Below the pieces are notes generated by a model. The model did no database searches. It was not told where the DNA came from and was given only the letters and a program-made list of their open reading frames with translations. 64,000 nt of DNA. It comes from a virus. Below are positions 18,321 to 64,000 of the stretch, piece after piece. Location: IMG/VR virus record IMGVR_UViG_3300045988_128133. The stretch is one strand, 5' to 3'. Positions within the stretch are counted from its first letter, which is position 1. Each line of letters begins with the position of its first letter. A program made the translations under genes and the position numbers.

Positions 18321-18355
18321 GGGGGCCGGGGGAACAATCCTCCGGCCCTCTTTTG
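18321..18355 (+). terminator. rho-independent terminator
   Basis: GGGCCGG...CCGGCCC hairpin followed by TCTTTT. Its loop, gggaacaatcct, resembles the loop of the terminator at 44413. Confidence 0.55.
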
Positions 18356-18374
18356 TCATACTAAAATAAACTTA

Positions 18375-18402
18375 TTGACAAAAGTAAAAATCCCTGTATG
18401 TT
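18375..18402 (+). promoter_or_regulatory. sigma70-like promoter TTGACA-N16-TATGTT
   Basis: Preceded by TTTTGTCATAC at 18351-18361, the same element found in the minus-strand early cassettes. Confidence 0.5.
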
Positions 18403-40700: not shown

Positions 40701-43700
40701 GCTAACGCGGAATACGCGCAAGCCACACGCCATACGGGTATTAAGGCAGACGGTACGGTCGTTGAATCCGGCATCGTTTGGAAGAAGCGTGATGCCGCCC
40801 TGCTGGAAGCCCGAAGGAAGAAGCAGGCTGAATTCATGGCTCGTCGTGAAGCTGGTGAAAAATACCTGAAGGAGCAAGGCGTAATCGGAAACCTCATCTA
40901 CAATGCAGTTGTCGATGCCCGCAAGGAAATCGCAGTAACGCAAATGGCTATCGCCCGCATCACGGGTGACAGCAAGATGGAAGACAATGCCAAGCGCATG
41001 GACTACCTGCATCGCACCTATCTGGCTGTGGGTAAGCACGCTGGGGACTACACGAAGACGATGCGGGAAATCATCGCCAATCCTAACGGTGAAACCGCAC
41101 AAGCCTTTAAGGGGCTTACCGTTCTGTTGAATGAAGCCGCGACGGCTCATGCCGAAACCCATCAGAGGGAGATGGCCGAAACCGTAAGCACCGTGCTGGA
41201 CAATATGCAGGCACTTGCAACCCTGCATGATGAACTGAACCTTGAGGTAGTGCCCGCAGGGGACACGGCTAACGAGAACAACGCACTCCTGTTCAATGGT
41301 GTTGCCAAGAACTTCAGAAGTCGCAATATTCTTGACTTCATCCATGACAACTATGGGGAAATTCAGTTGGCTTCTGACCTCAAGAACGGAATGAATATGT
41401 CCAGCATCTACGATAAGGCCATGTCCATGATTGTGCAGAGCGACAGGTACACGGCCAAACGTCTGGACAAAGTGAAGCGCAGGCTTCGCACGGAAGCCCA
41501 GGATAAATACATTGAATCCCTCCTACAAGGTGTGCCGGGCGATACGCTTCTGGACAAGCTGGGTTCCTTCAATTCAGGAGATGCTTTGGCCCACAGGATA
41601 AATGAAATCCTCCCCATGGTTCCGGTCAATGCCATCAACCAAATCTGGAATACCCCGCACCTGGATATTGAAGAGAAGCTGAACGACGTGGTGGACCTTC
41701 TCCGTAAGCAGGCAGAGATTCAGATGAACCTCAATGGTCTGGGCAATGTCATTAACGCTCAGGACATTAAGACGTTGGAATACCCCCAGCTCGCGGAACT
41801 GGCCATGGCTCATGCCAAGGAAGCCATTGACGAAGTACTGTCCAAGAAACGCACCCGTGAAGACGTAACGTCTATGCGGAAACGTGAACCGGAATGGAAG
41901 CGCAAGGCCATGCACGAACTCCACGATACTACCATTGGTGAAGCCATTGGCGTATTGCAGAACACTGTTTCCCTCCAGTCTAAACTGGCAGTGAATCAGG
42001 TGCTGTCTGATGAATATGCAACAGTGCTTAAGGACCAGGGGGTTGTAGTCGCGGAGGACAGTGCGGACCGTACCCCCGACATGGTGGAAGTCATGTTGAA
42101 GAATAAGCGTAATTCCCTGAACGGACTCTACACTACGCCGGATGTGGCTCGTGCCATTTACAAAATCTACATGCCCTCCGACGAAATCATGGACTCCAAG
42201 ACCAGCACGTATGAGGATGTCCGCAAGTACTGGAAGAGCCACACAGGAAGACCTGGCTTCCTCTCAAAGACGGGCGGCTACATCAACATGGCCACTCTTA
42301 TCGCCAGCCCAGGTTCCACCTTCCGTAACGCCTATGGTACTGCGGCTCAGATGCTTCATGCTGGTGCGTTCCCTGTGAAGGGGCTTAAGGACATTGGTTC
42401 CCTCGTGAAAGAATGGGGCCAGATGCACAAGCTCTACCTTAAAGCACAGGAAGGAGGCATTGGTGCGGAGTCTTCTGCTCAGAAGCTCCTACAGGCTGAG
42501 TCTAAATACAATGAGAAGATTCGCTACTGGCAGGAGATTGGTCTTCTTGATGCGGGGCAGGGTGAATTCCTTCGGAATATTTGGAAGTCCGAAGAGTTCG
42601 CGACAATGCAGGGAGAACTGGAATCCACGGATTCCGAGGATTCCTTCTATGCCTTTGCCGAAGCGTTAGAGGATAAGAGGTCCAAGACCACCATCAAAGA
42701 TGTGGCCAAGAAGGCAGGACATGGTGTTGCATACCCCGTGAAATTGGCCGCCTTTGCTTACGGGATGCCGGATGCCGCGGCTAAGATTGCGTTGTTCGGT
42801 AATCAGCAGGCACTCAGCCGCAAGCAGTTGGAGGTCCAGCTGGAACGGGCGACCATGAGAGCGGCCGCTGGGGAAGAACTCAATGCAAGGCAGAAGGCCC
42901 TTGTCCGCGCGGCAGGTAATGGTGAAGTGGCATGGAATGCGTATGTCGATAGGCATGCGGCTTCCAAGGTGAAAACCCTGCTTCCGACAGGTACGCGCAC
43001 CCCGAAGTGGGTGAAGTACATGGGGCAGTATGTTGCGCCCTACTTCATGTTCCAGTACCATACCTTCCAGTCCGCTATGTATAACGTGGGCTACGGCATG
43101 GAAGAAATTAGCGATGGTGTATGGGCTATGAAGAACGGCATGAGTAAGGACGGTGCCTACCTCGTAACCCGCGGGCTTGGCCGATTCATGGGTTCCGCGG
43201 CGGCTCTGACTGCCATGCCCATGCTTTCCCGCTGGGCTCTCATCACAGCGTTGCATACTCTTTATGGTGATGATGAGGACAAGATGCAATTCATTACGAA
43301 TGAGGGGGCACTCCGTAAGATGGCAGAGGCTGGACTCTTCCCGGAATATGACAAGTACGGTGACTTACTCGCCGTAGTGGACAAGGAAAGGAACGAGTTT
43401 ACCTACTTTAATCTTGACTATGTGAACCCCTACAAGAACGTGGTCAAGAGCTTTGGTACACTCTACAGACTAGCAGTCAAGTATGACGAAGACAAGTGGT
43501 CCAGCAATCCTATGGGTGAACTTCACAACCTGTTGGAAGGCACTGTGTTATCTCCGTCCATGGGGCTCGCTACCTTGTTTGAAGTGTTAGATGCTGAAGG
43601 ATTCCATTATCAGTATGCGACTACGGGCAATGAGAACGTGGACTTCATACCTGCGGTCGTCAATGCTCTAACCCTCACGGCGGGCTTCGAACCGTCCATG

Positions 43701-45812: not shown

Positions 45813-46313
45813 TTATTTAGATTCAAGGTGGGCGACAAGTTGTGTAATCGCTCCAATGCAGGCTTGCAATTCGGAAGCTGGATTAACATCCGCTAGCCTG
45901 TCATGTGTCCAGATGTTGAAGAGTCGTACAAGAATCCTGTCCTCTTCACATTCTTTATAGCTTTTAGCCATCACTGTGCGCTGAAACTGTTTCAAGATTA
46001 GGTGAAGCTCATAGGTCTCAAATACTTTCGCCCAGTTTTTGGCATGGTATTCGAGGTACCACTTAGCCTTCTTGAGGTCTTCAATGCGGTTCTTCTTGTA
46101 CCGTGAACGCATCAAATATTTTACGGCGTTGCCAAGGGCAAAGGGAAGCTTGCCTGTAATCTGGATAGCTTCAATTCCGCTGGGGTGTGATGTATAATGG
46201 GAGGGATGATTAACTGCATCATGGGTAATGGAATCCTCTTCAGGAATATCTGCAAAAGCCTGGGTCTTTACCCGGCTTGCCACTACCGCATTGATTACTT
46301 CGTGTTCTTGCAT
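45813..46313 (-). CDS. DUF3310-like phage protein
   Basis: NHPSHY...GIEAI...NAVKYL(M)R fits the DUF3310 signature as I recall it. Confidence 0.4.
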   Translation of the reverse strand: MQEHEVINAVVASRVKTQAFADIPEEDSITHDAVNHPSHYTSHPSGIEAIQITGKLPFALGNAVKYLMRSRYKKNRIEDLKKAKWYLEYHAKNWAKVFETYELHLILKQFQRTVMAKSYKECEEDRILVRLFNIWTHDRLADVNPASELQACIGAITQLVAHLESK

Positions 46314-46879
46314 TGATTTATAAGAGCTTTATAGATTAAACGTTGTTGATATTTTTGAACAAAGTGTTGGATGTTTAGAATGAAATCCGCAGGGACTGCG
46401 ACTAGAGTATATTTTCTAGCGTATCTTCGTAGCAGATACCGCACCATTCCATTTGTTTTTCCTACGATTTCTTTAGCTTTAACAGCATCTCCCACCAGTG
46501 TCACTACCATGGAAATATGGTGCTGAACACCGTTAAGATAATAACCGACCGAAAAGGCGTTGCTGTCTGCCTTCCACATTATAGCACACTCTGAGTCCTC
46601 ACCGTAGCGAGGACCTTTGGATGCCTTCGGTCTATCACTGGCGAGAATTGCGCCATAGTTTAATTGACTGCTGGTTAAGGGTTTGGCACTGGATAGGTCC
46701 GTATCTACCCACTTGTCGTGTTTAGGGTATAAGTCTGTTATAATACGCCTGCGGGCTTCAAGCTGGTCTCTCCCCAGGCGCACACCCCATGCGTGGTATG
46801 TCTCTTTAATTCGCCGATAGGAATCCGGGGTATTATTGAACAGCTGATAGCGGCCAGGGCCGTAGTATAGGCGAGGCAT
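46295..46879 (-). CDS. hypothetical protein
   Basis: 194 aa. Confidence 0.4.
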   Translation of the reverse strand: MPRLYYGPGRYQLFNNTPDSYRRIKETYHAWGVRLGRDQLEARRRIITDLYPKHDKWVDTDLSSAKPLTSSQLNYGAILASDRPKASKGPRYGEDSECAIMWKADSNAFSVGYYLNGVQHHISMVVTLVGDAVKAKEIVGKTNGMVRYLLRRYARKYTLVAVPADFILNIQHFVQKYQQRLIYKALINQCKNTK

Positions 46880-47550
46880 TAGTCCAGATATATAGCTGAG
46901 TTATGGATGCGATTTGGGCAGTGGGGGATATCCTCGAATGCCCAGCTTAAGCCGTATTTGTAGCTCATGGCTATCTTCAATGTAGTGAAGAGACTCCGTA
47001 TCTGAGGCTGAGCCGCGCCATCAAGACGCATACGGAAGATATGCCTCCACTCCCGGAGGTTAGCAGTCATAGCAATGGTTGTGGCTGTGCAGTTAGGGAG
47101 AAGACCGCGGGCTTCTTCAGGGGGCAGTCCTTCTTCACTAATCAGCTCAGCATAAGTGTACACCAGAGATAGGCACTTACCTTTGAACAGCCTGACAACT
47201 GTGGAAGGGGTTGAAGGGTCTCCAAAGAACTGAGGCTTAACCAGTTGAATAATTCCCTTCTTGTTGTAGTTCACGTACCTCTGAGACTCCATAGAGAAGG
47301 CGCAGTGGCGGTGACGTACCAGCTGGTGAGTTACACTCCTGTCCGTAGTTAGAACGGCAGAGATATTGATGTGTTCCAGTACGCTTTCATGTCCCCTATG
47401 GAGAATTTTAGACAGGAAAGCTACCGGGTCTCCTTTAGGTTCGCTTTTGTAGCAGGTGCGTCCGGCTTCTTCTGCCATAGATATGGCCTCAGAAACAGTT
47501 TCCTTACTAAGGGGGAGTCTTACCTGCTGGTCAATCCATTCGATGTCCAT
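46879..47550 (-). CDS. thyX: FAD-dependent thymidylate synthase ThyX
   Basis: ThyX signature RHRHCAFSMES (RHR-x7-S) and HESVLEH. Confidence 0.7.
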   Translation of the reverse strand: MDIEWIDQQVRLPLSKETVSEAISMAEEAGRTCYKSEPKGDPVAFLSKILHRGHESVLEHINISAVLTTDRSVTHQLVRHRHCAFSMESQRYVNYNKKGIIQLVKPQFFGDPSTPSTVVRLFKGKCLSLVYTYAELISEEGLPPEEARGLLPNCTATTIAMTANLREWRHIFRMRLDGAAQPQIRSLFTTLKIAMSYKYGLSWAFEDIPHCPNRIHNSAIYLD

Positions 47551-47562
47551 TGTTGTCTGTGT

Positions 47563-47880
47563 TTAAGAGTTCTTTAATTCATTTTCCATTCTTCTCAATG
47601 CTGTTCTGGATAAGAGTTCTTTAACTCTTTCCTCAGCATCTTCAATGCTGGTGTAAGTCCAACCGTAAGTTCCCCATTCTTCAGGGCTTGGCAAGTATTC
47701 ATCCCCAGCTTTAGTACCAGTGAAGTCATTGTCTTTTGTTCTGGTTCGGACAACGACCACTTCATACCTCCGGGTCTTCCCTTCGGGGTGGGTTTGTGAA
47801 TAAAGGGCTACGTGTTTTTCCCTCCTTATCAGAGTACATGTGAAGGGTTTGCGGATGTATTCGTCAGGAATCTTTTTCAT
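47563..47880 (-). CDS. hypothetical protein
   Basis: 105 aa. Confidence 0.35.
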   Translation of the reverse strand: MKKIPDEYIRKPFTCTLIRREKHVALYSQTHPEGKTRRYEVVVVRTRTKDNDFTGTKAGDEYLPSPEEWGTYGWTYTSIEDAEERVKELLSRTALRRMENELKNS

Positions 47881-49852
47881 TTTGTTTGAGCATGTTTAGG
47901 AATTCTTTCTCACTAATCACCGGGACTTTATGGAGTGCCGCAACCTTTTGCTTGTGTTCTCCGGGGGAGTCTCCGACAACTAGATAGCTGGTCTTTCTGG
48001 ATATATTCTCCTTAACACTGCCACCCATCCGTTTTACCAGCATAGCATACACAGAGCGGGGCTGGTTCAGCGTTCCCGTGATAACGAAGTTAATGCCTTT
48101 CAGGGTCTGGTTCTCTGGAAGGTTGCCCTTAACATCAACAATATCTTCACGCAGAACTGCGTAGTACATATCATTCCATGCAGGGTGCTGTTCAATCCAG
48201 TTCAGGATTTCCTCCGTCATTGCGCTTCCGAAACCTTCAATGTTCCCCTTCTTCAAATCGTCAGGGAAGAGGGTAAAGAAAGCTGACAGGGAAGAATATC
48301 TCCAGGACAGGTTTACGGCTCTGGTTTTGCCTATGTGGGGAATACCCATTGCCGTAATCCATTGCTCCAGTTTAGCGTCCTTTCTCCGCTTGTCAAGACA
48401 TTCCTTCAACCTTTTAGTCCCCGGTATCTGTGTAATCATGTCATCATAATCTCCAAGCATCAGAGGGAGCCACGGGTACTGGGCATCCGAAGGTATCTCT
48501 GCACACAGGTCAAGGCTGTCGTCAACGTATTCACGGAACCGGGCAACGAGGTTGCGGGCTACCGCAGGCCCCATGCCGTCAATGTCCAGAGCGTTCTTCC
48601 CACAGGCGTAAACGAGACTAGCCGCCATGCGTCCCCAGCAGTTGGGGTTAGGGCATACGAGGTTATCCGCTTCCAGACCTTTCTGCACGATGAGAGAGTG
48701 CTGACATTCCGGGCAGGATGCAGGGGACTTCGTACTAGTATTTGCAAGCTGAACCACCTTTCGGATAAAGGGAATGATTTCTCCTGCTTTCACCACTTCA
48801 ACCACGTCCCCGACATGATAGAGCTGGGCGTTGGAGTAGTTGGAAAGCGTGGCACGCCGGACTTCGGTACCTCCAATGATAACTGGGTCAAACTCTGCCA
48901 CTGGGGTCAATACTCCGGTTCTTCCTACCTGCCAGACAATCTTTCGGATGGTGGTATCTACCCCTCGCGGGTGGAACTTGAACGCAATAGCATCCTTCGG
49001 GTGATGAGCCGTAGGTTCTCCGGCCTCTTCAATATCCTGCAACGAAATCAGTTTAAGGACAAGGCCGTCCGTAGGATATTCCGTATCATACTGAAGTCCC
49101 TTTTGAAGAGCCTCCAGAAAATCCTGGGTAATTTCCCCATCAGTCAGGGGATTCCATATGCGTTGAGGGGGAACTACTCCGAACTGGCGTTCCATATAGA
49201 CACCCGCATAAGCGCGAGATACGGGGGCTTCCATGTCGAAGGGCATGAAACGGATAAGGAGGTCTTCCGCATTGAGGCGATTGTTCCTGAGCTGTCCCAC
49301 AGCACAGGCCCGGAGATTAGAGTAGCCCATAGCCAGAGCTTTCGCTTCATTCTCCACAGCTACCACCACTTCACCGCGAATGGTACCAGAGAAGGGGGAG
49401 TCCAACGCAAAGGCCGTATCGGGAAGGAAGGATTTAAGCCGGGACATGGGAACAATTTCTCCACGGGTTCCGTTGCCACGGGTGACACCGCGGATGAGCA
49501 AACCATCCTCATAATAGAGAACGAGAGTTAGCCCATCGTATTTAGGCTCAATGTACACCTTGCGTCCATTTATCCAGCTGTTAAGCTGGGCCACCCCGCT
49601 ACCATCCTCCCCCTCATGAATCTTGTCGAGGGAGAGGATGCGGTGGGTATGGACTACAGTCTTCGCTCCCCGCTGTGCGTCGTCACCGAGGGAACAGAGA
49701 AGCGGGGACTCAGGGTTACGGCTTCGGAGTTCAGCAATAAGTGCATCGTATTCACAATCGGGAACAACAGATAACCCTTCCCCATAATACTTCTGGTTCA
49801 GGAATTCAATCCGCTTTTCGAGTTCTGGTGTACTGTAGTCTTGAGGTTTCAT
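47864..49852 (-). CDS. ligA: NAD-dependent DNA ligase
   Basis: KYDG adenylation motif, C4 Zn finger CPECQ...CPNPNC, and a C-terminal BRCT-like segment. 662 aa. Confidence 0.75.
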   Translation of the reverse strand: MKPQDYSTPELEKRIEFLNQKYYGEGLSVVPDCEYDALIAELRSRNPESPLLCSLGDDAQRGAKTVVHTHRILSLDKIHEGEDGSGVAQLNSWINGRKVYIEPKYDGLTLVLYYEDGLLIRGVTRGNGTRGEIVPMSRLKSFLPDTAFALDSPFSGTIRGEVVVAVENEAKALAMGYSNLRACAVGQLRNNRLNAEDLLIRFMPFDMEAPVSRAYAGVYMERQFGVVPPQRIWNPLTDGEITQDFLEALQKGLQYDTEYPTDGLVLKLISLQDIEEAGEPTAHHPKDAIAFKFHPRGVDTTIRKIVWQVGRTGVLTPVAEFDPVIIGGTEVRRATLSNYSNAQLYHVGDVVEVVKAGEIIPFIRKVVQLANTSTKSPASCPECQHSLIVQKGLEADNLVCPNPNCWGRMAASLVYACGKNALDIDGMGPAVARNLVARFREYVDDSLDLCAEIPSDAQYPWLPLMLGDYDDMITQIPGTKRLKECLDKRRKDAKLEQWITAMGIPHIGKTRAVNLSWRYSSLSAFFTLFPDDLKKGNIEGFGSAMTEEILNWIEQHPAWNDMYYAVLREDIVDVKGNLPENQTLKGINFVITGTLNQPRSVYAMLVKRMGGSVKENISRKTSYLVVGDSPGEHKQKVAALHKVPVISEKEFLNMLKQNEKDS

Positions 49853-51250: not shown

Positions 51251-51278
51251 ATGATACCGTGGGTTCCGTGGATGTCAA
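51251..51278 (-). promoter_or_regulatory. sigma70-like promoter TTGACA-N16-TATCAT embedded in the 3' end of the upstream gene
   Basis: The spacer is tccacggaacccacgg, that is, two CCACGG motifs. Confidence 0.4.
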
Positions 51279-54735: not shown

Positions 54736-55536
54736 TTAGCGGTTGTACTTAGGAAGGGCGGCGTTGTAGTCCGTGCGCTTGTAGTGATATGTTTTCGGTG
54801 ACGTAATGGACGCAATAAGGGCATCCTGCTTCACCAGTTCACGCTTTACTTTAATTGTAGATTGCACAATCTTTCGCAAGATGCTTTCTTTCTGCATGTT
54901 GTGGAGAGATGTAAGAGCACTTTCCGCCTTAGATTCCAGATATTCCACAGTTGCGTTTAGCTTGTCAATCACGGGTTGCATGTCATCTACGCTAACAATG
55001 CGCCCAGTTTCCGGACTCACTAACACCTTAAAATCCAACGGGAAAGAAATATGTTCCTCCAATCCTAGGCTTCCGTGGAATCGGAGGCAATGCAAATCGT
55101 AATTGCTGAAATCTACATAGCCTTTAATTGTACGGAGAGTCTCTTTTTTCCGGGCATCATCCAAAGAGTCGGAGAAGCAAGCCTTTATGGCATTGTCCAA
55201 CCGGGCGTTGTAGACCTTACCCGCAAAACTGGGAAGCTTAGCAATTAGCCGCCTGATGAAGTCAATGGAGATATTGGCGGCGTAATAATAATTAAAAAGT
55301 TTCACTCGTGTAACATTCAAATCATCCAAAAAGGTACGGATTGATGCACCCAGTTCCCGCCAGTCATCTTTACCGAGGCCTTCCCCCGGTTCACCGTTGA
55401 ACTGGTTCCAGACTTCTTCCCGAACCGTTTTAATAGCGGCATCACTTTTCGTCATGTATGCAATCGTTTCGTTATGTGTGGTATATTTCATTTTCTTATT
55501 CTTTCTATTGGTTTTGTTAATATCCTTAAATATCAA
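54736..55536 (-). CDS. hypothetical protein
   Basis: 266 aa. Confidence 0.4.
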   Translation of the reverse strand: MIFKDINKTNRKNKKMKYTTHNETIAYMTKSDAAIKTVREEVWNQFNGEPGEGLGKDDWRELGASIRTFLDDLNVTRVKLFNYYYAANISIDFIRRLIAKLPSFAGKVYNARLDNAIKACFSDSLDDARKKETLRTIKGYVDFSNYDLHCLRFHGSLGLEEHISFPLDFKVLVSPETGRIVSVDDMQPVIDKLNATVEYLESKAESALTSLHNMQKESILRKIVQSTIKVKRELVKQDALIASITSPKTYHYKRTDYNAALPKYNR

Positions 55537-56084: not shown

Positions 56085-56149
56085 AATCTATTGTCTTTCT
56101 ATTGTTCGGTTGTTTTGTTCACCGCCCCTTATTGGCGGCTGATGTGGCT

Positions 56150-56177
56150 ATTTTAGCGGATTTGCGGATGTTGTCAA
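56150..56177 (-). promoter_or_regulatory. early promoter TTGACA-N16-TAAAAT (cassette A)
   Basis: Minus-strand read. TTTTGTCATACA lies at 56192-56203, an AT-rich UP-like tract, and a conserved leader hairpin CCGCC/GGCGG. Confidence 0.55.
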
Positions 56178-56185
56178 ATTATTTT

Positions 56186-56576
56186 TTAGACTGTATGACA
56201 AAACGGAGATTTATTTAGTAGTTTTGCTATCTGTATTTTTGCAATTCTGTGAGAAGGAAACACCCTAGAACATTTTCTTTTATATGTTGATAAGGTGCAA
56301 GGTGTTAGACAATTTGCCCGAACGTAATAAATTGTTGAATCTTCTTCTCCACCGTAAGGACGTACTAAACCTATTTCAATATATCCGGCTGAAATAAGTT
56401 CTTCAATGGGTCTTTTTGTTGCAATAGCCAGCCAGCTATACTTCTCCAACTGTACCGCATCTTTAATAGGTACGGAAGAAGCCTTTTCATCCGATACGGG
56501 AATCAATTCACTATTTACTACCTTATACCGGAACACCAAATCGTCAGCCAAAGGTAAAAATTTTATTCTTTTCATA
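56186..56576 (-). CDS. hypothetical early protein (ATG 56576)
   Basis: TTGTCATACAA at 56590-56602 abuts its start region. Confidence 0.35.
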
Positions 56577-56601
56577 TTATTTTTCAAGGTTGTATGACAA
56601 A

Positions 56602-57150
56602 TTACAAATAATTAACATGAGAGAGATACTTACTCCAATTCAGATTTTCCGGCTCTACTTCCTGCCCTTTCACCTGACGGAAGCGCATAAAGAGCTCCAC
56701 CTTTTTTCCTTTGGTATCATATCCGGGTGCGCTCCACTCTTCCAGATATTCTTCCCCCTCCCCCGCGTGGTGAATACTACCCGGAAAAAATCGGTTGGAA
56801 AGGGTCATTTGACGGGTGGCGCAATAGACGTGCCCTTGATAGACATACCCGCCGAACTGTTTTCGGAGTCCGTGAAAATCAACAGGGCATTGACCTTGCA
56901 CAAAGTAAAAATTATTGTTAACTACCAACCCTAAACGGAGGGAAACTGCACCGAGAGCACGGGCAATCAAACCTTCCAAAGATTTGACGGAATCGGAGGC
57001 GGTCAAATAGACTACCCATGCTTGGCCATGCCTCCAACAAATATGTTCCCGTTGGAGTGCGTTCTTAACACGTTTTTTAGCGTTGCGCCCTTCGGCACCT
57101 TGTGCATTGAGGCAGTCAAATAAAATTACGATTGTTTTTGCAGTTTTCAT
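56602..57150 (-). CDS. hypothetical early protein
   Basis: 182 aa. Confidence 0.35.
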   Translation of the reverse strand: MKTAKTIVILFDCLNAQGAEGRNAKKRVKNALQREHICWRHGQAWVVYLTASDSVKSLEGLIARALGAVSLRLGLVVNNNFYFVQGQCPVDFHGLRKQFGGYVYQGHVYCATRQMTLSNRFFPGSIHHAGEGEEYLEEWSAPGYDTKGKKVELFMRFRQVKGQEVEPENLNWSKYLSHVNYL

Positions 57151-57204
57151 ATTTAGTTTTTCTATTTGGTTTGTTCACCACCCTTGTGGGTGGCTGATGA
57201 AGTT

Positions 57205-57232
57205 AATCTAGCAGATTTTGCTACCTTGTCAA
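57205..57232 (-). promoter_or_regulatory. early promoter TTGACA-N16-TAGATT (cassette B)
   Basis: Leader hairpin is CCACCC-ACAA-GGGTGG. Confidence 0.5.
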
Positions 57233-57266
57233 ATTATTTTTTACTTTGTATGACAAAATGGATAAA

Positions 57267-57587
57267 TTATTGATTGATAATGGCTTGTGCGTAGTCCATA
57301 ATATTGCTTACGTGTACAACCCGGAAGCGTTCCTGTTCCGCAATCAGGGCAATGTCTTTTTGCTGACGGGAAGTTGTCTGGGAGTATTTGCGGGAAGAAA
57401 GATAAAGGATTTTATTTGCTCTATCTACTGCCGCAATTATGGTGGCATATGAGTACAAGAGCGGCCCCTCAAATTTCATTGAGCGAAGGCTTCCATAGTT
57501 GGTGCGGCGCAATGGTGCTTTCCCGCTGGTTGCGGTTCCGTCCAGATACGGGTACATAAGTTTTTCAACGTAGTTTCGGGTATTCAT
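57267..57587 (-). CDS. hypothetical early protein
   Basis: 106 aa. Confidence 0.35.
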   Translation of the reverse strand: MNTRNYVEKLMYPYLDGTATSGKAPLRRTNYGSLRSMKFEGPLLYSYATIIAAVDRANKILYLSSRKYSQTTSRQQKDIALIAEQERFRVVHVSNIMDYAQAIINQ

Positions 57588-57643
57588 ATTCTGTTTTCTT
57601 TCTATTTGATTTGTTTGCCGTCCTATCGGTGGCTGATGAAGCT

Positions 57644-57671
57644 AGTTTATCGGATTTGATGATGTTGTCAA
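57644..57671 (-). promoter_or_regulatory. early promoter TTGACA-N16-TAAACT (cassette C)
   Basis: TTTTGTCATACAA lies at 57699-57711. Confidence 0.5.
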
Positions 57672-57717
57672 CTATTTTATTTAAAATTTTTCATCTTTGT
57701 ATGACAAAAGTTGAAAC

Positions 57718-57951
57718 CTATTTATTTTCAGTGCGTTTCACGTTTGTAAATATTAGGCAGGTTAAGGGGCCGCTGGTAGGGCATATGCCTGATAAAACCC
57801 ATTCACCGGGAAATTTCCGCTTGTCAATTCTTTTTTCTCTTTTTTGCGGTGTATCTGATTTCGGCCCTAGCGTCATCACCCTTTCCGGCGTTCCCCTCAT
57901 TCTGCCTATCCGAAATGTTTCGGTGGTTATCTCGTCCATATTAAGCGGCAT
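57718..57951 (-). CDS. possible small basic protein in 228-nt gap
   Basis: 77-aa ORF that overlaps the upstream stop by 11 nt. Composition is only moderately coding-like. Confidence 0.2.
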   Translation of the reverse strand: MPLNMDEITTETFRIGRMRGTPERVMTLGPKSDTPQKREKRIDKRKFPGEWVLSGICPTSGPLTCLIFTNVKRTENK

Positions 57952-58264
57952 TCATTCCGGCATCTTCCAGCATCAAGCAAAGCGGGTCAGAAATGTGCAC
58001 CCGTGAAACTTTCCAATCGGCTTCATTTCGGCGGTACTCGTCAATCGTCATTTCCCGGTGCGGTACGTTTTTGAGCAGGCCCCGCTTTTTTGCGATAATG
58101 GTAAGAGTTGCACCGCATTTTTCCGCTAGGTTAGTAAGATAGACTAGTTCCGTTGCGGCATTTTTTGATAGTTGCAGGGTATATGGTTCAACCTGCCTCA
58201 CATTAGCGGCTAGATTTTTAATCATCACCCGTTCATAAGGTTTGAGTTCGGCAATGGTATTCAT
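57941..58264 (-). CDS. hypothetical early protein
   Basis: 107 aa. No promoter of its own, so probably co-transcribed with the 58289 gene. Confidence 0.35.
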   Translation of the reverse strand: MNTIAELKPYERVMIKNLAANVRQVEPYTLQLSKNAATELVYLTNLAEKCGATLTIIAKKRGLLKNVPHREMTIDEYRRNEADWKVSRVHISDPLCLMLEDAGMNAA

Positions 58265-58288
58265 GATTGATTGTTAGTAGGTTAAAGA

Positions 58289-58528
58289 TTAGTCAAAAAG
58301 CAGTTCAAAGCCGTCTTCATACTTGCTCAATTCCGCATCCCATGAATCCGCAACTTCTTTGATAAGTGATTCAATGGCTTCCGGGTTTTCGGTAATTACG
58401 TAGATAATGCAAGTGTTGGTGGTGCGGAAACTTTGCCCCGTGATGCGGTTGATATGCTGGTGTATGTTTTGCTGATGCGCCTTTTCCCAGATTTCGCTTG
58501 CAATTATTGCCATAGTTTCTTCTCTCAT
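58289..58528 (-). CDS. small acidic early protein
   Basis: 79 aa, acidic. Confidence 0.35.
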   Translation of the reverse strand: MREETMAIIASEIWEKAHQQNIHQHINRITGQSFRTTNTCIIYVITENPEAIESLIKEVADSWDAELSKYEDGFELLFD

Positions 58529-58607
58529 AATCTATTGTCTTTCTATTTGGTTTGTTCACCGCCCCTTGTGGGTGGCTGATACCGCTATCGCGGCGGGTTA
58601 TGCGGCT

Positions 58608-58635
58608 ATTTTATCGGGTGTTCTAATGTTGTCAA
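58608..58635 (-). promoter_or_regulatory. early promoter TTGACA-N16-TAAAAT (cassette D)
   Basis: Consensus -35 and -10 elements, with TTTTGTCATACAA at 58664-58676. Confidence 0.55.
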
Positions 58636-58690
58636 CTATTTTATTTAAAATTTTTCGAGGTTGTATGACAAAATCGTAAATTGTTGATTA

Positions 58691-59185
58691 TTAGTTAGAT
58701 AGTTTGAAGTGAGGGCGGGCAATACTGGTTGGCAGGTAAATATCATCATGGGTGGCAAAGAGCACACGCCCATTGCGGATGACCGCAAACGCCGTCCACC
58801 CGTCATTGCGGGCAAGTACTGATGTCAGGGCGTTAAGATAGGTTCCTATCGTCCTGCGTCCGTCCGGTTTGTGTGCACCAACGGGCGGCTCGCTTTTATC
58901 GCACCAGAAATAGACGGTGCAGTTATGAAGTGAAGTAGATAATGGGGCCGGAATGATGCCCGTGTATCTATAGCGGCTCTCCACATACCAAGGTGTACAA
59001 GGTGCCGGGCCACCAAAGGCAGGGGAGTTTTCGAACCGGGAGTCTGGGGCGGTAGGGGAGACAAGCAAAAAATGACGGGAAAACTCGTCAGCTTGTGCCC
59101 GTTCTTCGGCGGTCGTATCTCCAAAGTCTCCTGTACGGAGGTAATTGACAAGGCGGGTAGGAATATATGCAATATCTGTGTTCAT
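58691..59185 (-). CDS. hypothetical early protein
   Basis: 164 aa. Confidence 0.35.
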   Translation of the reverse strand: MNTDIAYIPTRLVNYLRTGDFGDTTAEERAQADEFSRHFLLVSPTAPDSRFENSPAFGGPAPCTPWYVESRYRYTGIIPAPLSTSLHNCTVYFWCDKSEPPVGAHKPDGRRTIGTYLNALTSVLARNDGWTAFAVIRNGRVLFATHDDIYLPTSIARPHFKLSN

Positions 59186-59233
59186 ATGTTTATTTTGGTT
59201 GCGGGGGAGGTACCGCCCCCCGGTGATTGATAT

Positions 59234-59575
59234 TTAGTCATTAACGCCGAAGGCCAAACGGGCGGCGGCTCCCATGACGGAGGTATTAAGCTCATGCCGG
59301 GTTGCTACGATATTATTGCCCTGACGGGTGGCCACATCCGTGAAATAGAGATTGCGGGCCTTGCGGGCATCCTTATCATTGCGGATATCATGGCCCAGAT
59401 AGTTTTCCAGTAGGTCTTTATCCTCATTCCAACATGCCGCAACGTCGATATTATCGATGCAGGGCCTAATGGATTCTGTGGGCACCGGGGATGCAAAGAC
59501 TGTCCGGCTTCCGTGGGTTACAAACATGTGTAAGGTTCCGGCGTTATCTTCAATCACAATGTAGTTCATATTCAT
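59234..59575 (-). CDS. hypothetical early protein
   Basis: 113 aa. Confidence 0.35.
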   Translation of the reverse strand: MNMNYIVIEDNAGTLHMFVTHGSRTVFASPVPTESIRPCIDNIDVAACWNEDKDLLENYLGHDIRNDKDARKARNLYFTDVATRQGNNIVATRHELNTSVMGAAARLAFGVND

Positions 59576-59637
59576 AATATATTGTCTTTTTCTATTTTGG
59601 TTTGTTATTCACCGCCTTATTGGCGGTTGATGCGGCT

Positions 59638-59665
59638 ATTTTATCGGGTATGATGACGTTGTCAA
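59638..59665 (-). promoter_or_regulatory. early promoter TTGACA-N16-TAAAAT (cassette E)
   Basis: Leader hairpin is ACCGCC-AATAA-GGCGGT. Confidence 0.55.
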
Positions 59666-59731
59666 CTATTTTTTTTTTAAAATTTTTTCAGCTTGTATGA
59701 CAAAAGTTGCAATGCCCTCACTACGTGTGAC

Positions 59732-60313
59732 TTATCGCACGGGAAAAACTTCGCATCCTACCACAACCACCCGGCAATATTCCCGGCCGTCATTCTTGGC
59801 TTCCCGGATTGTGGTGACTAGCCGGGTTAAATCGTCCGGGTTTTTGAGGGTGAGGGCAAGAGCCGAGCAAGTGACGGTACCAAGTTCCATTGCTTCAAAA
59901 TTGGATTTAATGGCGGCGAGTACCCGGGTGCGGGTCTCTTTGTTTTTGATAAGACTAGCCATGACGATTACTTTTTTCCCGGCATACTTTGCAGACAGTT
60001 CGGCGGGCGTGGGGGAAATGGCACTAAAGGCATGGCGGCCCGCATTCCTCATATTTTCCCACAAGGGGCGGCGGCAATAAACTAGTTCTGTCCCCGGCGT
60101 TGCGGCCGTTGCAGTCCACCACTTGCGGGCATCGATGATATCTACGGGCATTTTCCAGCTCTTCACCTCATGCAAATTGTTGAGCATGTGTGGCAAGTAT
60201 TCAGCCGATACCGGGCCAGCAAATCTGATATCACCTAGATTATCAACCACAACTAAACGGAGTTCACCCGTCTTTGTTTCGTACACTAGCACATGGAGTT
60301 CTTTCTTATTCAT
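59732..60313 (-). CDS. hypothetical early protein
   Basis: 193 aa. Its N-terminus is duplicated in the adjacent pseudogene. Confidence 0.4.
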   Translation of the reverse strand: MNKKELHVLVYETKTGELRLVVVDNLGDIRFAGPVSAEYLPHMLNNLHEVKSWKMPVDIIDARKWWTATAATPGTELVYCRRPLWENMRNAGRHAFSAISPTPAELSAKYAGKKVIVMASLIKNKETRTRVLAAIKSNFEAMELGTVTCSALALTLKNPDDLTRLVTTIREAKNDGREYCRVVVVGCEVFPVR

Positions 60314-60326
60314 ATCTTATATCTTT

Positions 60327-60522
60327 CTATCGTTTGGTTTGATTTGTTTTGTGGTAGTTATTAAGCGTTTTCGGTATCGTTCAAATTACGTAGGAGGGTG
60401 AGCAAGGATTCTGTGGGTACAATAGGGGCGATTGCCTGATTCCCCTTATCGTCCATGACTATCATACGGAGTTCACCCGTCCGGGTTTCGTAAATATGTG
60501 CGGTCACTTTGGCCATGTTCAT
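60327..60522 (-). pseudogene. frameshifted partial duplicate of the 5' end of gene 59732..60313
   Basis: MNMAKVTAHIYETR, then a +1 shift, then TGELRMIVMDDKGNQAIAPIVPTESLLTLLRNLND aligns with HVLVYETKTGELRLVVVDNLGD...LNNLHE. DNA shares the 15-mer ACGGGTGAACTCCGT, and the shift comes from a 1-nt insertion. Confidence 0.45.
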
Positions 60523-60572
60523 ATTCTATTGTTTTTCTATCGTTTAGCCGCCAATGAGGGTGACGGTTACAA

Positions 60573-60602
60573 GTATTATTTAGTATTTTCGGAGGTTGTC
60601 AA
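60573..60602 (-). promoter_or_regulatory. early promoter TTGACA-N18-TAATAC (cassette F, variant leader)
   Basis: Leader shares the 33-nt block ggttacaagtattatttagtattttcggaggtt with the 61017 region. Confidence 0.35.
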
Positions 60603-60626
60603 TAAGTTTTTTCGGAGTATGACAAA

Positions 60627-61019
60627 TTAAAGCAAACGGTCATCGATGACGCTAACCCATTGATTATTTGCCGCATCATAGCGGGGTGCAACAAAGAGAG
60701 CGGAATCAACCCCTAGCGGCATCCATGCAATGCGCTCATGCATGGGCAGATTGTTGAGGAGACTCGCCGGGGGTGTGCCGTCAGGGGAAATGAGCATCAC
60801 GCCATTTTCGGAGGCCCGTACAACAGTCACACCCGGATAATTCCGGGAAACGTTCGGCCATGCGTACCGGGTCATGAGGTCTAAAATCAGCAAGGCATCT
60901 TTAGCAGTCATGCCCGTATACCAACGTACCCGGTCATCTACCGTTGACCACATAATAAGAGTAGATTCTTGCAGTTCGTAGCTTATATGCAGGTTTTCAA
61001 TAATTCCTTTCAGCTTCAT
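60627..61019 (-). CDS. hypothetical early protein
   Basis: 130 aa. Its upstream cassette lacks TTGACA, so it is probably co-transcribed with the 61093 gene. Confidence 0.35.
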   Translation of the reverse strand: MKLKGIIENLHISYELQESTLIMWSTVDDRVRWYTGMTAKDALLILDLMTRYAWPNVSRNYPGVTVVRASENGVMLISPDGTPPASLLNNLPMHERIAWMPLGVDSALFVAPRYDAANNQWVSVIDDRLL

Positions 61020-61092
61020 AAGTTATTGTCTTTCTATTGTTTGGCCTTCCTTTCGGCGGTGGTTACAAGTATTATTTAGTATTTTCGGAGGT

Positions 61093-61323
61093 TTAGGCAC
61101 GGAGCCGGACTTTCCAATCTTCAACGGTGGCGGGCAAGCCGAAAGCCGGGAAGCGGGTGAAGTAGTGCTCTTCACCGCAACGAGCCACAAGGTAATAGTC
61201 AGCTTTAAACCCATTGGCAAGCGCAATGTCCTCAAGGGTTAGGCCGTCCGTATCTCCGTATTCCAAATAACAAAGGGCCCATTCAGGAATTGCGGCGATT
61301 TCGTATTCTTCCAGTTCGTTCAT
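61093..61323 (-). CDS. small acidic early protein
   Basis: 76 aa. First gene of the array. Confidence 0.35.
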   Translation of the reverse strand: MNELEEYEIAAIPEWALCYLEYGDTDGLTLEDIALANGFKADYYLVARCGEEHYFTRFPAFGLPATVEDWKVRLRA

Positions 61324-61379
61324 ATCTATTATCTTTCTATTGTTTGGTTTAACCTCCCTTGTGGGCGGTTGATGTGCTC

Positions 61380-61407
61380 ATTTTACAAGAGAGTAGGGTA
61401 CTGTCAA
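61380..61407 (-). promoter_or_regulatory. early promoter TTGACA-N16-TAAAAT (cassette G)
   Basis: Here the TTTTGTCATACA element (61476-61487) is in inverted orientation. Confidence 0.5.
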
Positions 61408-61529
61408 TAGATTTATTTGATAATTGTTGATACTCATTGGCGAAAGCGGTGTAACTCGTTGAACCTGTGGCAATTATGATTTTGTCATACATCTCCGCTT
61501 CGCTATGATGCGGGCCGTACATCTCCGCT

Positions 61530-61742
61530 CCCACGGTTCCCACGGTTCCCACGGTTCCCACGGTTCCCACGGTCGCCATATGTGCGTGCGCGCGTGTGCG
61601 TGCATATGTATATAGTGGTTGCCGTGGGTTCCGTGGAGTCCGTGGAGTGTATGGGTAGCATGGGAACCGTGGAGTGTATGGGTAGCATGGGAACCGTGGA
61701 GTCAATGGGAACCGTGGAGTCAATGGGAACCGTGGGTTCCGG
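61530..61742. repeat. large imperfect inverted-repeat cluster of CCACGG-type units (candidate ori/pac/partition site)
   Basis: 5x tandem CCCACGGTT (61530-61574), then an alternating Pu/Py tract (61577-61614), then inverted units GGAACCGTGGAGT: 2x a 27-bp unit plus 2x an 18-bp unit (61621-61742). Confidence 0.85.
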
Positions 61743-61810
61743 CCGCGCCTCATGTATGGTAACTCCCTGATGCTAAGTCTGTTACATTTCTTATACAACT
61801 GTATAACTTT

Positions 61811-61845
61811 TAGTTTAGGTTTCTTAATAGTTTAGGTTTCTTAAT
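61811..61845. repeat. direct repeat AGTTTAGGTTTCTTAAT x2; nearby AAAATTTATAC x3 (61847, 61879, 61971)
   Basis: Seen directly in the sequence. Confidence 0.7.
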
Positions 61846-62321
61846 TAAAAATTTATACCGTTCGCATACCTTCACATAAAATTTTATACGAAGTGCATGC
61901 GAAGGGTGCAAATTAGAGCACGGAAATCACGGAAACAGTGTAAAATAGTCCAATATCAGACCATCCCACATAAAAATTTATACGCCTGTATAGGAAATGT
62001 GCCAACCTTTTACAATTTTGTAAAATGAAGCATGCTTCGGATAATTTAAGACCTTCATCCTCAACGTATTCCCCTTATTCTGACAGGATTAGTAGGATTA
62101 AAAAGATGAGGCCAGTTCTCAAATAACATTCCTACCAATTAGGCATTATATGTATTATGCGAAGTATGGAACTGTAACCCATTGATTCTATGGTACTTAT
62201 AGCAAACAGGGTGCCAATAGGAAACAGGGGAGAGTGGAAGCATGCACCAATTGCGTGAAGGGGCAGGCTACCCTATACCTTATTGAGTATCTGACGGTTA
62301 GGGGAAGCGGAAGCCGGAAAG

Positions 62322-62364
62322 CCACGGATTCCACGGATGCCGGGAGGCCACGGATGCCGGGAGG
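62322..62364. repeat. tandem CCACGGATGCCGGGAGG x2 preceded by CCACGGATT
   Basis: gccacggattccacggatgccgggaggccacggatgccgggagg. Confidence 0.8.
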
Positions 62365-62612
62365 CCCTAATATGTTAGGCGCAACTAACTTTTGGAAAAA
62401 ATTGGCGGCATGGGGAAATTTTTTCGGCCAAAAAAGTCCAAATACCACCACGGTTTCCGGGGCTTCGGGGCAACACATGCGCTATTGTAAAAGATTGACA
62501 CAAATTTTTCGGCAGGGGTGCGGGGGTAGGGGTACCCTTCTGGGCAGACAGGGGAGAGGCTTGTCAAGAGAAATCGACGCGCGGCTGGGCTTCATTTTCA
62601 TCTATTTTATGC

Positions 62613-62640
62613 TTGACAGAAAAAAGATTTCTGCTATAAA
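62613..62640 (+). promoter_or_regulatory. sigma70-like promoter TTGACA-N16-TATAAA in non-coding region
   Basis: gcttgacagaaaaaagatttctgctataaa. Confidence 0.45.
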
Positions 62641-62646
62641 AGCCTC

Positions 62647-62827
62647 CGGTTCTCGAAGAGGTCTGCAAGGGCTCACTCCCCAACTGTAGACCCACTCTTT
62701 ACTCAGGTAGCCGCAACAGATAATGTCGAGTAAAACTGTTGGCCGGGCAGACCTGGTTTCGAGTTCGAGAACCCAACTTCCATTGGATTCCCCGGAGGTC
62801 GCGGCAACGGCTTCCGGGGTTTTTGTT
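62647..62827 (+). ncRNA. candidate ~180-nt non-coding transcript (promoter-to-terminator unit)
   Basis: Bounded by the 62613 promoter and the 62790 terminator. No convincing ORF inside. Confidence 0.3.
62790..62827 (+). terminator. rho-independent terminator
   Basis: CCCCGGAGG...CTTCCGGGG hairpin followed by TTTTTGTT. Confidence 0.5.
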
Positions 62828-63860
62828 GTCAAGAGAAATCGACGCGCGGCGAGGGTTCCAAGAGGCATATTAAATCCTACTAGTTTGGTAGGGATTAAGA
62901 GGGACCAGATTAGAGTTACTGAAACCCCATGGAGCAGTCCATGTCAAGCAAAATCGACATGCGGCCATTACCATGCACAGGGCACTGTCAGATAAACAGC
63001 AACATCTACAGCGTCGCAACATGAAAGAACCCCTCCGAAGTACCGTGAAGGCGATACCTGGAGGGGCTGAAAGATACGACTAAACCAGTAGAAAGGAAGG
63101 CCCGTGCGGAGAACCTTAGCCAGGGAAGGGTTTCTGAACTCGCGTCGCGTAGCGGTGTCAGCCGTTGTCTCCGTGGGGACCGGGGGCAATTTATCACGGG
63201 GAGGAAACCCTGTCAAGCAAAAACGGTTTACGTGGGAGCAATGGCTTCCGAGGGTACCGGGGGTACATGTCAAGCAAAAACGACGCGCGGCGGGTACCCA
63301 GGCCCACAGTAGGGAGTTCCATCATACAGGAGGTAGCTCTTGCTCTTATAGCTTCCACCCAAGGTTGCCCATTCCTGACATGTTACCCCACCACTCCACG
63401 CGCTTGCACAGTGTGTTGGCTATCGTTAACCACTGAAGGAGGTCAAGGCCGTTTTAGCCGGGGGTAACTTTGTTCTACCTTATTAGGCCTACTTACAATG
63501 TTACCCATACCTAAAAGAGAGGTTTGAGAGCGGGATGGACAATCACAAGGGGGAGGGTAGGTAAGCTCGTGGAAGGTAGGGGTAACATGACAAGAATGGG
63601 ACTGTGCGTAGCCACCCGTGATGCAGGTGTTCATGCGTAGGTACGCGCGGGGGTGAGCAGGAGGGGGAAAGAGGAGGAACCCGCTTGACAGAGGCTGTGA
63701 CTGGCCTAGAACAGTGGAACAACGTAACTTTGGTAGTGGGTTAACTCCCTTATCATCAAGAAGTTACTACAGAGTGGAACAGAGTGGAACAAGATGAGAA
63801 TGTGACAAATTTTCACTGACTATCAACGAGTTGCAGGGTTAGGAACAACGAACAGCTTTA

Positions 63861-63902
63861 CGCGCGCGGTGTATATGTGTGTATGTGTGTATGTGCGTAT
63901 AT
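63861..63902. repeat. alternating purine-pyrimidine (GT/GC) Z-DNA-prone tract
   Basis: cgcgcgcggtgtatatgtgtgtatgtgtgtatgtgcgtatat. Resembles the tract at 61577-61614. Confidence 0.7.
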
Positions 63903-64000
63903 TTTTTATTACTCTCTCACACATTAAATAAATTATATATATTCATTGTTATAGGGGATGTAACTCATTAACACTCAATAAAAATTTGTACCAATCTTAC

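Follow-up and report, generated by a model that had tools for sequence, protein, structure and literature searches.

Introduction

The closest described elements to those reported here are the promoter early stem-loop (PeSL) modules of the T4-like phages RB49/phi1, PST and nt-1 (Arbiol et al. 2010, PMC2839356; Comeau et al. 2014, PMC4122927). These repeated intergenic modules of ~100 nt bracket the small ORFan genes of a hyperplastic region and run from an AT-rich tract through a consensus sigma-70-like early promoter and a stable G+C-rich stem-loop, often of the G-run/C-run type, to a ribosome site and an ATG. Recombination inserts, deletes and swaps the genes, and crossovers occur even within the loop (PMC2839356, PMC4122927). 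Here, we describe an arrangement with the same order and setting in the IMG/VR virus record IMGVR_UViG_3300045988_128133, which comes from an uncultured human-gut phage with a genome of ~70 kb. The window (the whole stretch of DNA analysed) covers 64 kb of that genome, and within it a minus-strand block running from 61.4 to 56.1 kb consists of successive cassettes of small ORFan genes, in which a promoter is followed by a G+C-rich hairpin. The arms of this hairpin differ widely among related phages and remain complementary, which points to selection on pairing, and we tentatively propose that the hairpin protects the 5′ ends of early transcripts. We call the cassettes early on the strength of their position and gene type.

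A second precedent is provided by 5′ stabiliser hairpins. Those of ompA and papA, and of aprE and ermC in B. subtilis, are generic 5′ stem-loops of unimportant sequence that block 5′-end-dependent decay, stabilising E. coli and B. subtilis mRNAs by hindering RppH, RNase E and RNase J (PMC3997798). They belong to single genes, whereas the phage and its relatives repeat one module over 6-8 hairpin cassettes per genome, leaving ~5 nt unpaired at the 5′ end in one of two clades. Class III transcripts of phage T7 (the phi10 leader of pET vectors) also carry a 5′ stem-loop, which is reported to raise mRNA stability. They share with the present module a conserved phage promoter, a directly 5′-terminal stem-loop and then an unstructured leader with a ribosome site, and differ from it in using T7's own single-subunit RNA polymerase, a stem that begins at +1, a conserved stem sequence and a Shine-Dalgarno (SD) sequence. 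PeSL-like modules and 5′ stabiliser hairpins are therefore known kinds of element; what is new is a transcribed 5′ hairpin within recombining cassettes with sigma-70-type promoters.

The phage lineage is undescribed and is unrelated to the T4-like phages. Neither Megablast of the cassette region nor tblastn of the terminase found a match among 50,697 phage records (INPHARED), and because of this the cassettes are an analogue, not a homologue, of PeSLs. The two also differ in layout. The PeSL stem-loop lies upstream of, between or over the -35 and -10 elements, or just before the start, whereas the phage hairpin always lies inside the predicted transcript, at ~+5 to +25. Unlike PeSLs, the phage cassettes have no U-tract or terminator context and no SD sequence, and they carry an additional boundary motif, TTTGTCATAC.

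The cassette module and its predicted transcription start

The full module (~130 nt) precedes six minus-strand cassettes, with ATG codons at 61323, 59575, 58528, 57587, 57150 and 56084. Its layout, read on the minus strand between 55.8 and 61.7 kb, from the regions upstream of 13 start codons and from a promoter pattern search, is TTTGTCATAC(AA), an A/T-rich stretch of 15 or 27 nt, TTGACA-N16-TAnnnT, a gap of 5 nt, CATC, a G+C-rich hairpin of 4-11 bp, a leader and ATG. The leader 3′ of the hairpin is A/C-rich and reads (T)GAACAAACC..., followed by AATAGAAAGA and, after 10-13 nt, the ATG. A preliminary description of this DNA had overlooked the promoter, and the "leaders" it compared are the 3′ half of this longer module.

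Related genomes of ~68-72 kb were found by pattern scans of IMG/VR and human-gut metagenomes. The first two scans used loose patterns, and the matches listed were mostly unrelated loci; the sample of relatives used here comprises 73 family loci, which give 65 unique leaders. The module architecture is common to ~70 related loci. We distinguish clade A, which has stems of the window type, from clade B, relatives with other stems that are often G-run/C-run pairs.

The window contains 16 matches to TTGACA-N16-18-TAnnnT, where 1.2 would be expected. In the family as a whole, the -10 element differs only where sigma-70 tolerates variation, and clade-B promoters have TGC directly 5′ of the -10 hexamer, which we read as a putative extended -10. 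When the family promoters were re-collected without demanding CAT, the 57 unique promoters all had A at position 7 after the -10. Position 6 was C in 53 and T in four of them, position 8 was T in 51/57 and position 9 was C in 53/57. Since the spacing between a consensus -10 and this Y(-1)A(+1) is the canonical one, we predict that the A of CATC is where host RNA polymerase starts transcription.

Reading CATC as a start also dissolves the "CATCAGCC(A/G)CC box" that had been put forward as an invariant element, which proves to be a composite of the predicted CATC start and a variable stem arm. AGCC(A/G)CC is the spacer plus the 5′ stem arm of clade A, and clade B has, for example, CAGCGGGG or AACGGGGG in its place. 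Even in the window the box is not invariant: CATCAGCCRCC has three exact and three one-mismatch copies on the minus strand (3/6 are thus one mismatch off), which with one plus-strand match makes seven against 2.2 expected.

A hairpin conserved in pairing and position

In the window, the six whole leaders fold better than their dinucleotide shuffles (z between -4.1 and -1.6), and the whole sequence that follows the hairpin is predicted to stay unpaired through and beyond the ATG. Among all 30-nt windows of the phage, the segment from +1 to +30 falls in the top 7% for folding in 5/6 cassettes, a level reached by 0/10 of the other TTGACA promoters in the window. Across the family, 56 of the 57 unique promoters carry a hairpin, which starts at about +5 to +8 in 41/41 unique 5′ ends. 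The +1 to +30 segments have a mean minimum free energy of -10.3 kcal/mol and a mean z of -2.6, with z < -1 in 90%.

At least 12 unrelated stem designs occupy this one place in the family: CCGCC/GGCGG, CCACCC/GGGTGG, GCCACC/GGTGGC, GCGGGG/CCCCGC, CCGGG/CCCGG, GGGGG/CCCCC, GGGGA/TCCCC, GGGG/CCCT, GCAAGGGAGA/TCTCCCTTGC, GGGGGAGA/TCTCCCCC, GCCGC/GCGGT and CCC/GGG. The window copies alone supply essentially a single compensatory pair change (G-C to A-T), weak evidence by itself. Because a MAFFT alignment of the real leaders failed to bring the arms into register, covariation was assessed on an arms-only alignment of 24 distinct arm pairs from the relatives, taking six arm positions on either side of the predicted closing pair. 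Paired cells made up 81.9%, against 44.7 ± 3.7% with partners shuffled (0/500 shuffles as high). Changes occurred on both sides at 6/6 stem pairs, and there were 52 double-changed cells against 24 ± 3 in the shuffles. The covariation score was 0.788, against 0.208 when shuffled (0/500) and at most 0.32 when partners were slid by 1-3 columns. Covariation is thus strong once relatives are included. Because the predicted structure served as the anchor of this alignment, the figures lean towards that structure. Three lines of evidence are independent of the anchoring: the z-scores, the genome background and the replacement of hairpins upstream of orthologs. For example, the gene whose product begins MKENEIEVW is preceded in different genomes by GCCACC/GGTGGC, CGGGG/CCCTT or GCGGGG/CCCCGC, and the MNNQIINIP gene is preceded by four different hairpin designs, so that one orthologous gene may have unrelated hairpins upstream of it. 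At the level of sequence comparison, these results show that selection acts on pairing and not on primary sequence, as the preliminary description had argued from fewer copies.

The loops are 3-9 nt long (e.g., ACAA, AATAA, GGAAG, GACAAG, AAG, TGAA), and none is conserved. When positions 59609-59630 are compared with L041 (at 4890), a relative 94% identical to the window, and with L268 (at 330), the loop of the cassette with ATG 59575 is reverse-complemented, from AATAA to TTATT, in the 94%-identical relative. The clade-B loop of GCGGGG-G(n)ACAAG-CCCCGC contains from four to eight G across the genomes L239, L240, L245 and L242, differences that look like slippage.

The hairpin belongs to the promoter

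The number of unpaired nucleotides before the core stem is tightly distributed (median 5, standard deviation 1.3), and the distance from stem to ATG is loose (24-55 nt, standard deviation 7.5). The hairpin is missing from internal genes that have the AATAGAAAGA box and lack a promoter (ATG 55490 and 60313). The hairpin therefore belongs to the promoter or 5′ end and not to the ribosome site.

Its location inside the predicted transcript points to a function at the RNA level and not to a terminator. An intrinsic terminator was rejected, as there is no U-tract directly 3′ of the stem: the 8 nt after it contain a median of one T and a maximum of three. On the opposite strand of the cassette with ATG 56084, a T-run begins, by eye, ~13 nt after the stem. 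There are no terminators between the cassettes, and terminator-like sites between 45 and 64 kb number 21, against 21 expected.

A milder effect on elongation, in which the hairpin acts as a PeSL-like attenuator, insulator or pause site that damps or pauses transcription from upstream promoters and its own, so as to keep read-through from accumulating or to time the loading of ribosomes, seems to us unlikely, though it is the most probable of the alternatives. PeSL stem-loops of the form G(n)-loop-C(n) beside sigma-70-like early promoters lowered lacZ expression to an extent similar to that seen with the rrnB T1 terminator (PMC2839356), and clade-B stems are likewise G-run/C-run. The lack of other terminators among the cassettes, with terminator-like sites at the expected number, would suit such a role, and leader pause hairpins are documented in capsular polysaccharide (CPS) operons of Bacteroides (PMC11685472). 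Against this stand the missing U-tract and the position of the hairpin 3′ of the promoter, where transcription from the strong promoter of its own cassette would be attenuated to the same degree. In addition, the 10-14 nt downstream are, by eye, A/C-rich with no pause-like G/Y-G, an impression gained without a pause-motif scan.

A fixed position beside a conserved start motif could also mark a site at which a trans-acting factor binds, either on nascent RNA or on the non-template strand of the DNA. It might be the target of a translational or stability repressor for early shut-off, an antitermination signal of the N/boxB or put type, or a loader for a NusG-like factor. Some sequence details lend themselves to this idea. 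Loops are often ACAA or GACAA(G/A), which we take to recall the P22 boxB loop GACAA, and the clade-A 3′ arm with its flank reads GGCGGT, the six bases with which the E. coli ops element GGCGGTAG begins. Leader hairpins of Bacteroides do recruit factors (PMC11685472). Lambda and P22 nut boxB, like the Bacteroides ops pause hairpins (PMC11685472), are small leader hairpins near promoters with covariable stems; unlike them, the phage family has no conserved loop, boxA or ops consensus, and no cognate factor was found. No loop or stem sequence is common to the family, GGCGGT is missing from clade B, and in one ortholog the loop is reverse-complemented. No boxA-like partner was seen, and downstream terminator-like sites are at the chance level. 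Pfam searches of 27 open reading frames (ORFs) detected no NusG, N-like or RNA-binding domain. We consequently regard a factor site as improbable, and the binding site for a translational repressor or RNA chaperone suggested earlier is disfavoured in any loop-specific form by loops of 3-9 nt, one of them flipped. A lambda-type nut site (boxA plus boxB), which has a 5-bp stem, a conserved GNRA-like pentaloop and terminators downstream, was rejected as a candidate, with 5-nt loops in only 18/64 leaders and unconserved, no boxA-like partner seen and no excess of terminators.

The hairpin might act as DNA. As a hairpin or cruciform, it could itself be, or aid, a promoter for an injected N4-like phage RNA polymerase, with transcription starting just 3′ of it in GAACAAAC. 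Both strands form the hairpin equally well, and conserved sequence does lie 3′ of it. Like the hairpin promoters of N4, the phage element is a short G+C-rich inverted repeat at the beginning of early units, the N4 repeat being of 5-7 bp with variable stem bases that keep pairing (PMC4496689). A candidate polymerase could be sought in the giant ORF of 3,199 aa in the late block (34788-44387, plus strand), whose DNDID motif (residues 1783-1787) is like the DFDxD of the crAss-like virion RNA polymerase (bioRxiv 10.1101/2020.03.07.982082). The giant ORF also has a metalloprotease-like HEAIH motif at about residue 1486. It has no motif B or motif C pattern and, searched whole and as a 400-aa segment around DNDID, no match in Pfam, PHROGs or PDB sequences; a homologue search with residues 1450-2350 gave one protein. 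The defining features of N4 promoters, which need a 3-nt loop, a purine at -11, G at -10 and -8 and C at +1 (PMC4496689), are missing: only 3/64 leaders have a 3-nt loop, and neither loops nor stems contain a conserved base. The N4 hairpin lies upstream of +1, centred at -11, whereas the phage hairpin, with loops of 3-9 nt, lies downstream of a full consensus sigma-70 promoter at the canonical distance. In phage phi14:2, moreover, it is the sigma-70-like promoters that host RNA polymerase uses (bioRxiv 10.1101/2020.03.07.982082). The hairpin-promoter signal suggested earlier is accordingly very unlikely.

A possible 5′ protective stem-loop

We tentatively propose that the hairpin is a 5′-proximal RNA stem-loop that shields early mRNAs from 5′-end-dependent decay, a reading to which we attach slightly less than even weight. 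Host RNA polymerase would start at the A of CATC, so that the hairpin would span roughly +5 to +25 of each early transcript. A generic stem-loop in this position could hinder pyrophosphate removal, attack by RNase E/G stimulated by a 5′ monophosphate, or a 5′ exonuclease, and would leave the unstructured, SD-less ribosome-loading region open. Because no terminators separate the cassettes, transcripts may read through several of them; if these were cut in the AU-rich spacers, a hairpin would then cap the 5′ end of each downstream segment. The independence from sequence that marks 5′ stabilisers is seen here, in the unrelated stems and variable loops at one place. Of the three roles raised in the preliminary description, an element for stability against RNases is the best fit to a hairpin that is tied to the 5′ end and generic, with no conserved loop.

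Several points weigh against this proposal. The predicted +1 derives entirely from promoter geometry. The sense and antisense strands fold equally (-10.26 and -10.22 kcal/mol), a strand test based on wobble pairs gave no asymmetry, and frequent variants that make an A.C mismatch on the sense strand make G.T on the other. Consequently, sequence alone cannot tell whether the folded species is the sense RNA or DNA, and our choice of the sense RNA as the functional species is a working assumption. The free 5′ end also matters, given that the B. subtilis enzyme needs at least 2 unpaired 5′ nucleotides and prefers three or more (PMC3997798). Clade A, counting the UCA/UGA extension of its stems, would have 1 unpaired nucleotide at the predicted 5′ end, and clade B, with its start likewise predicted, ~5, so that protection there could be partial. 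Searches for the host, whose RNases bear on this reading, gave no candidate: the cassette pattern is missing from the 185k species genomes scanned, a back-translated LigA scan gave no relative, and ThyX homologues outside the phage family are <50% identical. Finally, PeSLs, the closest described elements, act in experiments as terminators or attenuators, and not as stabilisers (PMC2839356).

A more general signal can be envisaged, in which the shape of the hairpin, in nascent RNA or extruded DNA, is read independently of its sequence just after promoter escape and reprogrammes the polymerase or recruits an injected phage factor, in a host that may belong to the Bacteroidota and use canonical sigma-70-like phage promoters. 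We think this improbable, at about the level of a factor site. If it were true, one possible outcome would be processive early transcription over the terminator-free 6-kb array, and another a phage-specific fate for the transcripts.

Recombining cassettes

Pairwise comparisons show that cassette insertions and deletions between genomes have their breakpoints inside modules. Positions 56186-56601 of the window, for example, are missing from L156, L209 and L263; they hold a promoter-less ORF (56186-56574) bracketed by two TTTGTCATAC copies. Positions 56207-57166 are missing from L248, with ~97 nt of shared leader at the junction. These comparisons show, as far as sequence can, that homologous recombination acts on the modules and that cassettes are inserted, deleted and swapped by it. 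Recurrent stems with one mismatch, in which CCACC is paired with GGCGG, are best read as chimeras that join the 5′ arm of one cassette type to the 3′ arm of another, with the crossover in the loop. Upstream of one ortholog, the mismatched form GGCGGC occurs in 8 loci and the perfect form GGTGGC in 10. On this reading, recombination produces mismatched chimeric stems, which selection then repairs or replaces.

Recombination might instead account for the hairpins altogether, the palindromes being functionless by-products or substrates of cassette shuffling. The breakpoints inside modules, the chimeric stems, the flipped palindrome and the slippage in loop G-run length could all be cited for this. 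Yet homologous recombination needs no palindrome, wholly different arms stay complementary at the same place behind 56/57 promoters, and mismatched chimeras coexist with repaired versions. Of the explanations weighed here, we judge this the least probable.

A copy of the TTTGTCATAC motif, separated from the -35 by 15 or 27 nt, marks where each cassette has its 3′ boundary, and the motif is kept in both clades. It has seven minus-strand copies between 56193 and 60626, one of which (56592..56601) has no promoter behind it, and plus-strand copies at 18352, 54693 and 61481. The motif might serve a regulator as a binding site or delimit recombination.

Individual cassettes of the window

The cassettes and leaders in this section are all on the minus strand. 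The five hairpins reported in the preliminary description are present where it had placed them; it missed a sixth, weak copy (57617-57633) and an additional tandem hairpin (58581-58594).

Cassette 1 (ATG 61323) has the promoter TTGACA-N16-TAAAAT at 61380..61407. The segment from CATC through the hairpin spans 61351..61374, with the predicted +1 at A 61373, and the hairpin ACCGCCC-ACAA-GGGAGGT (61351-61370) contains one G.A mismatch (leader z -1.67). Its AATAGAAAGA box is at ~61331-61340. Just upstream of this cassette, at 61520-61741, lie two opposed arrays of a 9-bp unit, CCACGGTTC/CCA, in 4-5 and ~6 copies, which could be iterons or regulator sites. The only match with E<1 in an Rfam search of 55.9-64 kb, MIR538 (E = 1e-4), was dismissed as a spurious artefact of these arrays.

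In cassette 2 (ATG 59575), TTTGTCATAC at 59695-59704 lies upstream of TTGACA-N16-TAAAAT (59638..59665). CATC and hairpin span 59609..59632, with the predicted +1 at 59631, and the hairpin ACCGCC-AATAA-GGCGGT with a UCA/UGA extension (59609-59630) gives the lowest leader z, -4.06; the AATAGAAAGA box is at ~59586-59595.

Cassette 3 (ATG 58528; TTTGTCATAC 58663-58672; TTGACA-N16-TAAAAT 58608..58635) begins with CATA in place of CATC, within the segment 58556..58602, and its predicted +1 is 58601. It has two hairpins in tandem (leader z -2.44). The first is GCCGC-GATA-GCGGT (58581-58594); the second, ATCAG plus CCACCC-ACAAG-GGGCGG (58556-58579), has chimeric arms and one A.C mismatch. The AATAGAAAGA box follows at ~58537-58546.

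The hairpin of cassette 4 (ATG 57587), GCC.CC-GAUA-GG..GGC at 57617-57633, is degraded and weak (leader z -1.58), and its orthologs in relatives have an intact CCGCC/GGCGG stem. The other parts of the module are in place, namely TTTGTCATAC (57699-57708), TTGACA-N16-TAAACT (57644..57671), CATC (segment 57617..57638, predicted +1 at 57637) and the AATAGAAAGA box (~57596-57605).

Cassette 5 (ATG 57150) combines TTTGTCATAC at 57248-57257 with the promoter TTGACA-N16-(TGc)TAGATT at 57205..57232. Its segment from CATC through the hairpin is 57175..57199 (predicted +1 at 57198), the hairpin is CCACCC-ACAA-GGGTGG with a UCA/UGA extension (57175-57197; leader z -3.13) and the AATAGAAAGA box is at ~57156-57165. 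In cassette 6 (ATG 56084), the corresponding elements are TTTGTCATAC at 56193-56202, TTGACA-N16-TAAAAT at 56150..56177, CATC and hairpin at 56119..56144 with the predicted +1 at 56143, CCGCC-AATAAGG-GGCGG with a UCA/UGA extension at 56119-56142 (leader z -2.51) and the AATAGAAAGA box at ~56093-56102.

Three further leaders depart from this plan. A variant cassette (ATG 60521; 60546..60602) has TTGACA-N16-AATAAT with a different spacer block, and its weak hairpin, CCGUCA/UGGCGG at 60548-60566, is no better than shuffles (z +0.46). The variant leader of ATG 61019 (61020..61090) lacks TTGACA and a significant hairpin (z +0.86), shares the block aacctccgaaaatactaaataatacttgtaacc with the 60521 cassette and retains the AATAGAAAGA box (61029-61038). 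Before an internal ORF with ATG 59185, a promoter-less remnant at 59202..59223 consists of ATCA, a CGGGGGG...CCCCCG hairpin and CAACCAAAATAAAC. It resembles clade-B leaders, lacks -35 and -10 elements and is probably a cassette after promoter loss.

Translation signals and possible host

The AATAGAAAGA box is nearly invariant in early genes of both clades, 10-13 nt before the ATG, and a further copy lies at 55500-55509. The sequence AGAAAG would be complementary to a 16S rRNA tail with CUUUCU. The leaders contain no SD sequence, as the preliminary description had noted. Its remark that some late genes have AAGGAG is marginal: any SD core occurs in only 2/65 starts, against 11.7% of random 15-mers, which amounts to genome-wide avoidance. 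The regions upstream of starts are 44% A.

SD avoidance with A-rich upstream regions is typical of Bacteroidota, and the SD-less genome suggests that the host may be a member of that phylum. The Bacteroidetes -7 motif TAnnTTTG is not enriched (27 against 32.7 expected). Canonical promoters and Bacteroidota-like SD avoidance are, by analogy, not contradictory, because phi14:2 shows sigma-70-like promoters at work in Bacteroidota: the middle promoters of this phage are -35/-10-like and used by E. coli sigma-70 holoenzyme, and the polymerase of its host transcribes T7 A1 (bioRxiv 10.1101/2020.03.07.982082).

Genome setting and other repeats

The cassette ORFs encode 52-193 aa and have no Pfam match or match only domains of unknown function. 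Elsewhere in the window, a helicase-like protein (34-996) and an exonuclease (983-2218) are encoded on the plus strand, the large terminase lies at 3750-5585, and a DUF3310 protein (45813-46313), ThyX (46879-47550) and an NAD-dependent DNA ligase (47864-49852) are encoded on the minus strand. Most remaining ORFs of the window have no PHROG or Pfam match. A tRNA scan found none, and Rfam gave 0 matches at gathering thresholds over the whole window.

Other repeats accompany the cassettes. CCACGGWWCCCA (<=1 mismatch) has 32 copies in the window, where 1.3 would be expected, and one of them lies within the spacer of the promoter at 51251-51278 on the minus strand. The ~2.3 kb at 61700-64000 have few ORFs and contain TAAAAATTTATAC repeats along with 4-5 minus-strand copies of GCCGCGCGTCGATTT(t/c)nCTTGACA, near 62561, 62826, 62941, 63200 and 63267. 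These copies make up a second family of promoter-like TTGACA sequences, none of which has a gene behind it. One possibility for this region is that it is the leading end of the genome; another is that it gives rise to non-coding transcripts. At 18325-18402 on the plus strand, a hairpin GCCGGGGG-AACAAT-CCTCCGGC is followed by CCTCTTTTGTCATAC and then by the promoter TTGACA-N16-TATGTT; the TTTTGTC of this motif could be a terminator U-tract just ahead of a plus-strand promoter.

Significance

The cassettes provide a portable expression module (promoter, 5′ hairpin and SD-less leader) from an abundant uncultured lineage of human-gut phages. Natural variation within this lineage already equals a compensatory-mutation experiment. 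The idea developed for PeSLs, that modules both express and shuffle ORFan genes, is extended by these phages beyond the T4-like group. If the host belongs to the Bacteroidota, the module could serve gene expression in gut commensals, and it could inform how SD-less mRNAs are stabilised.

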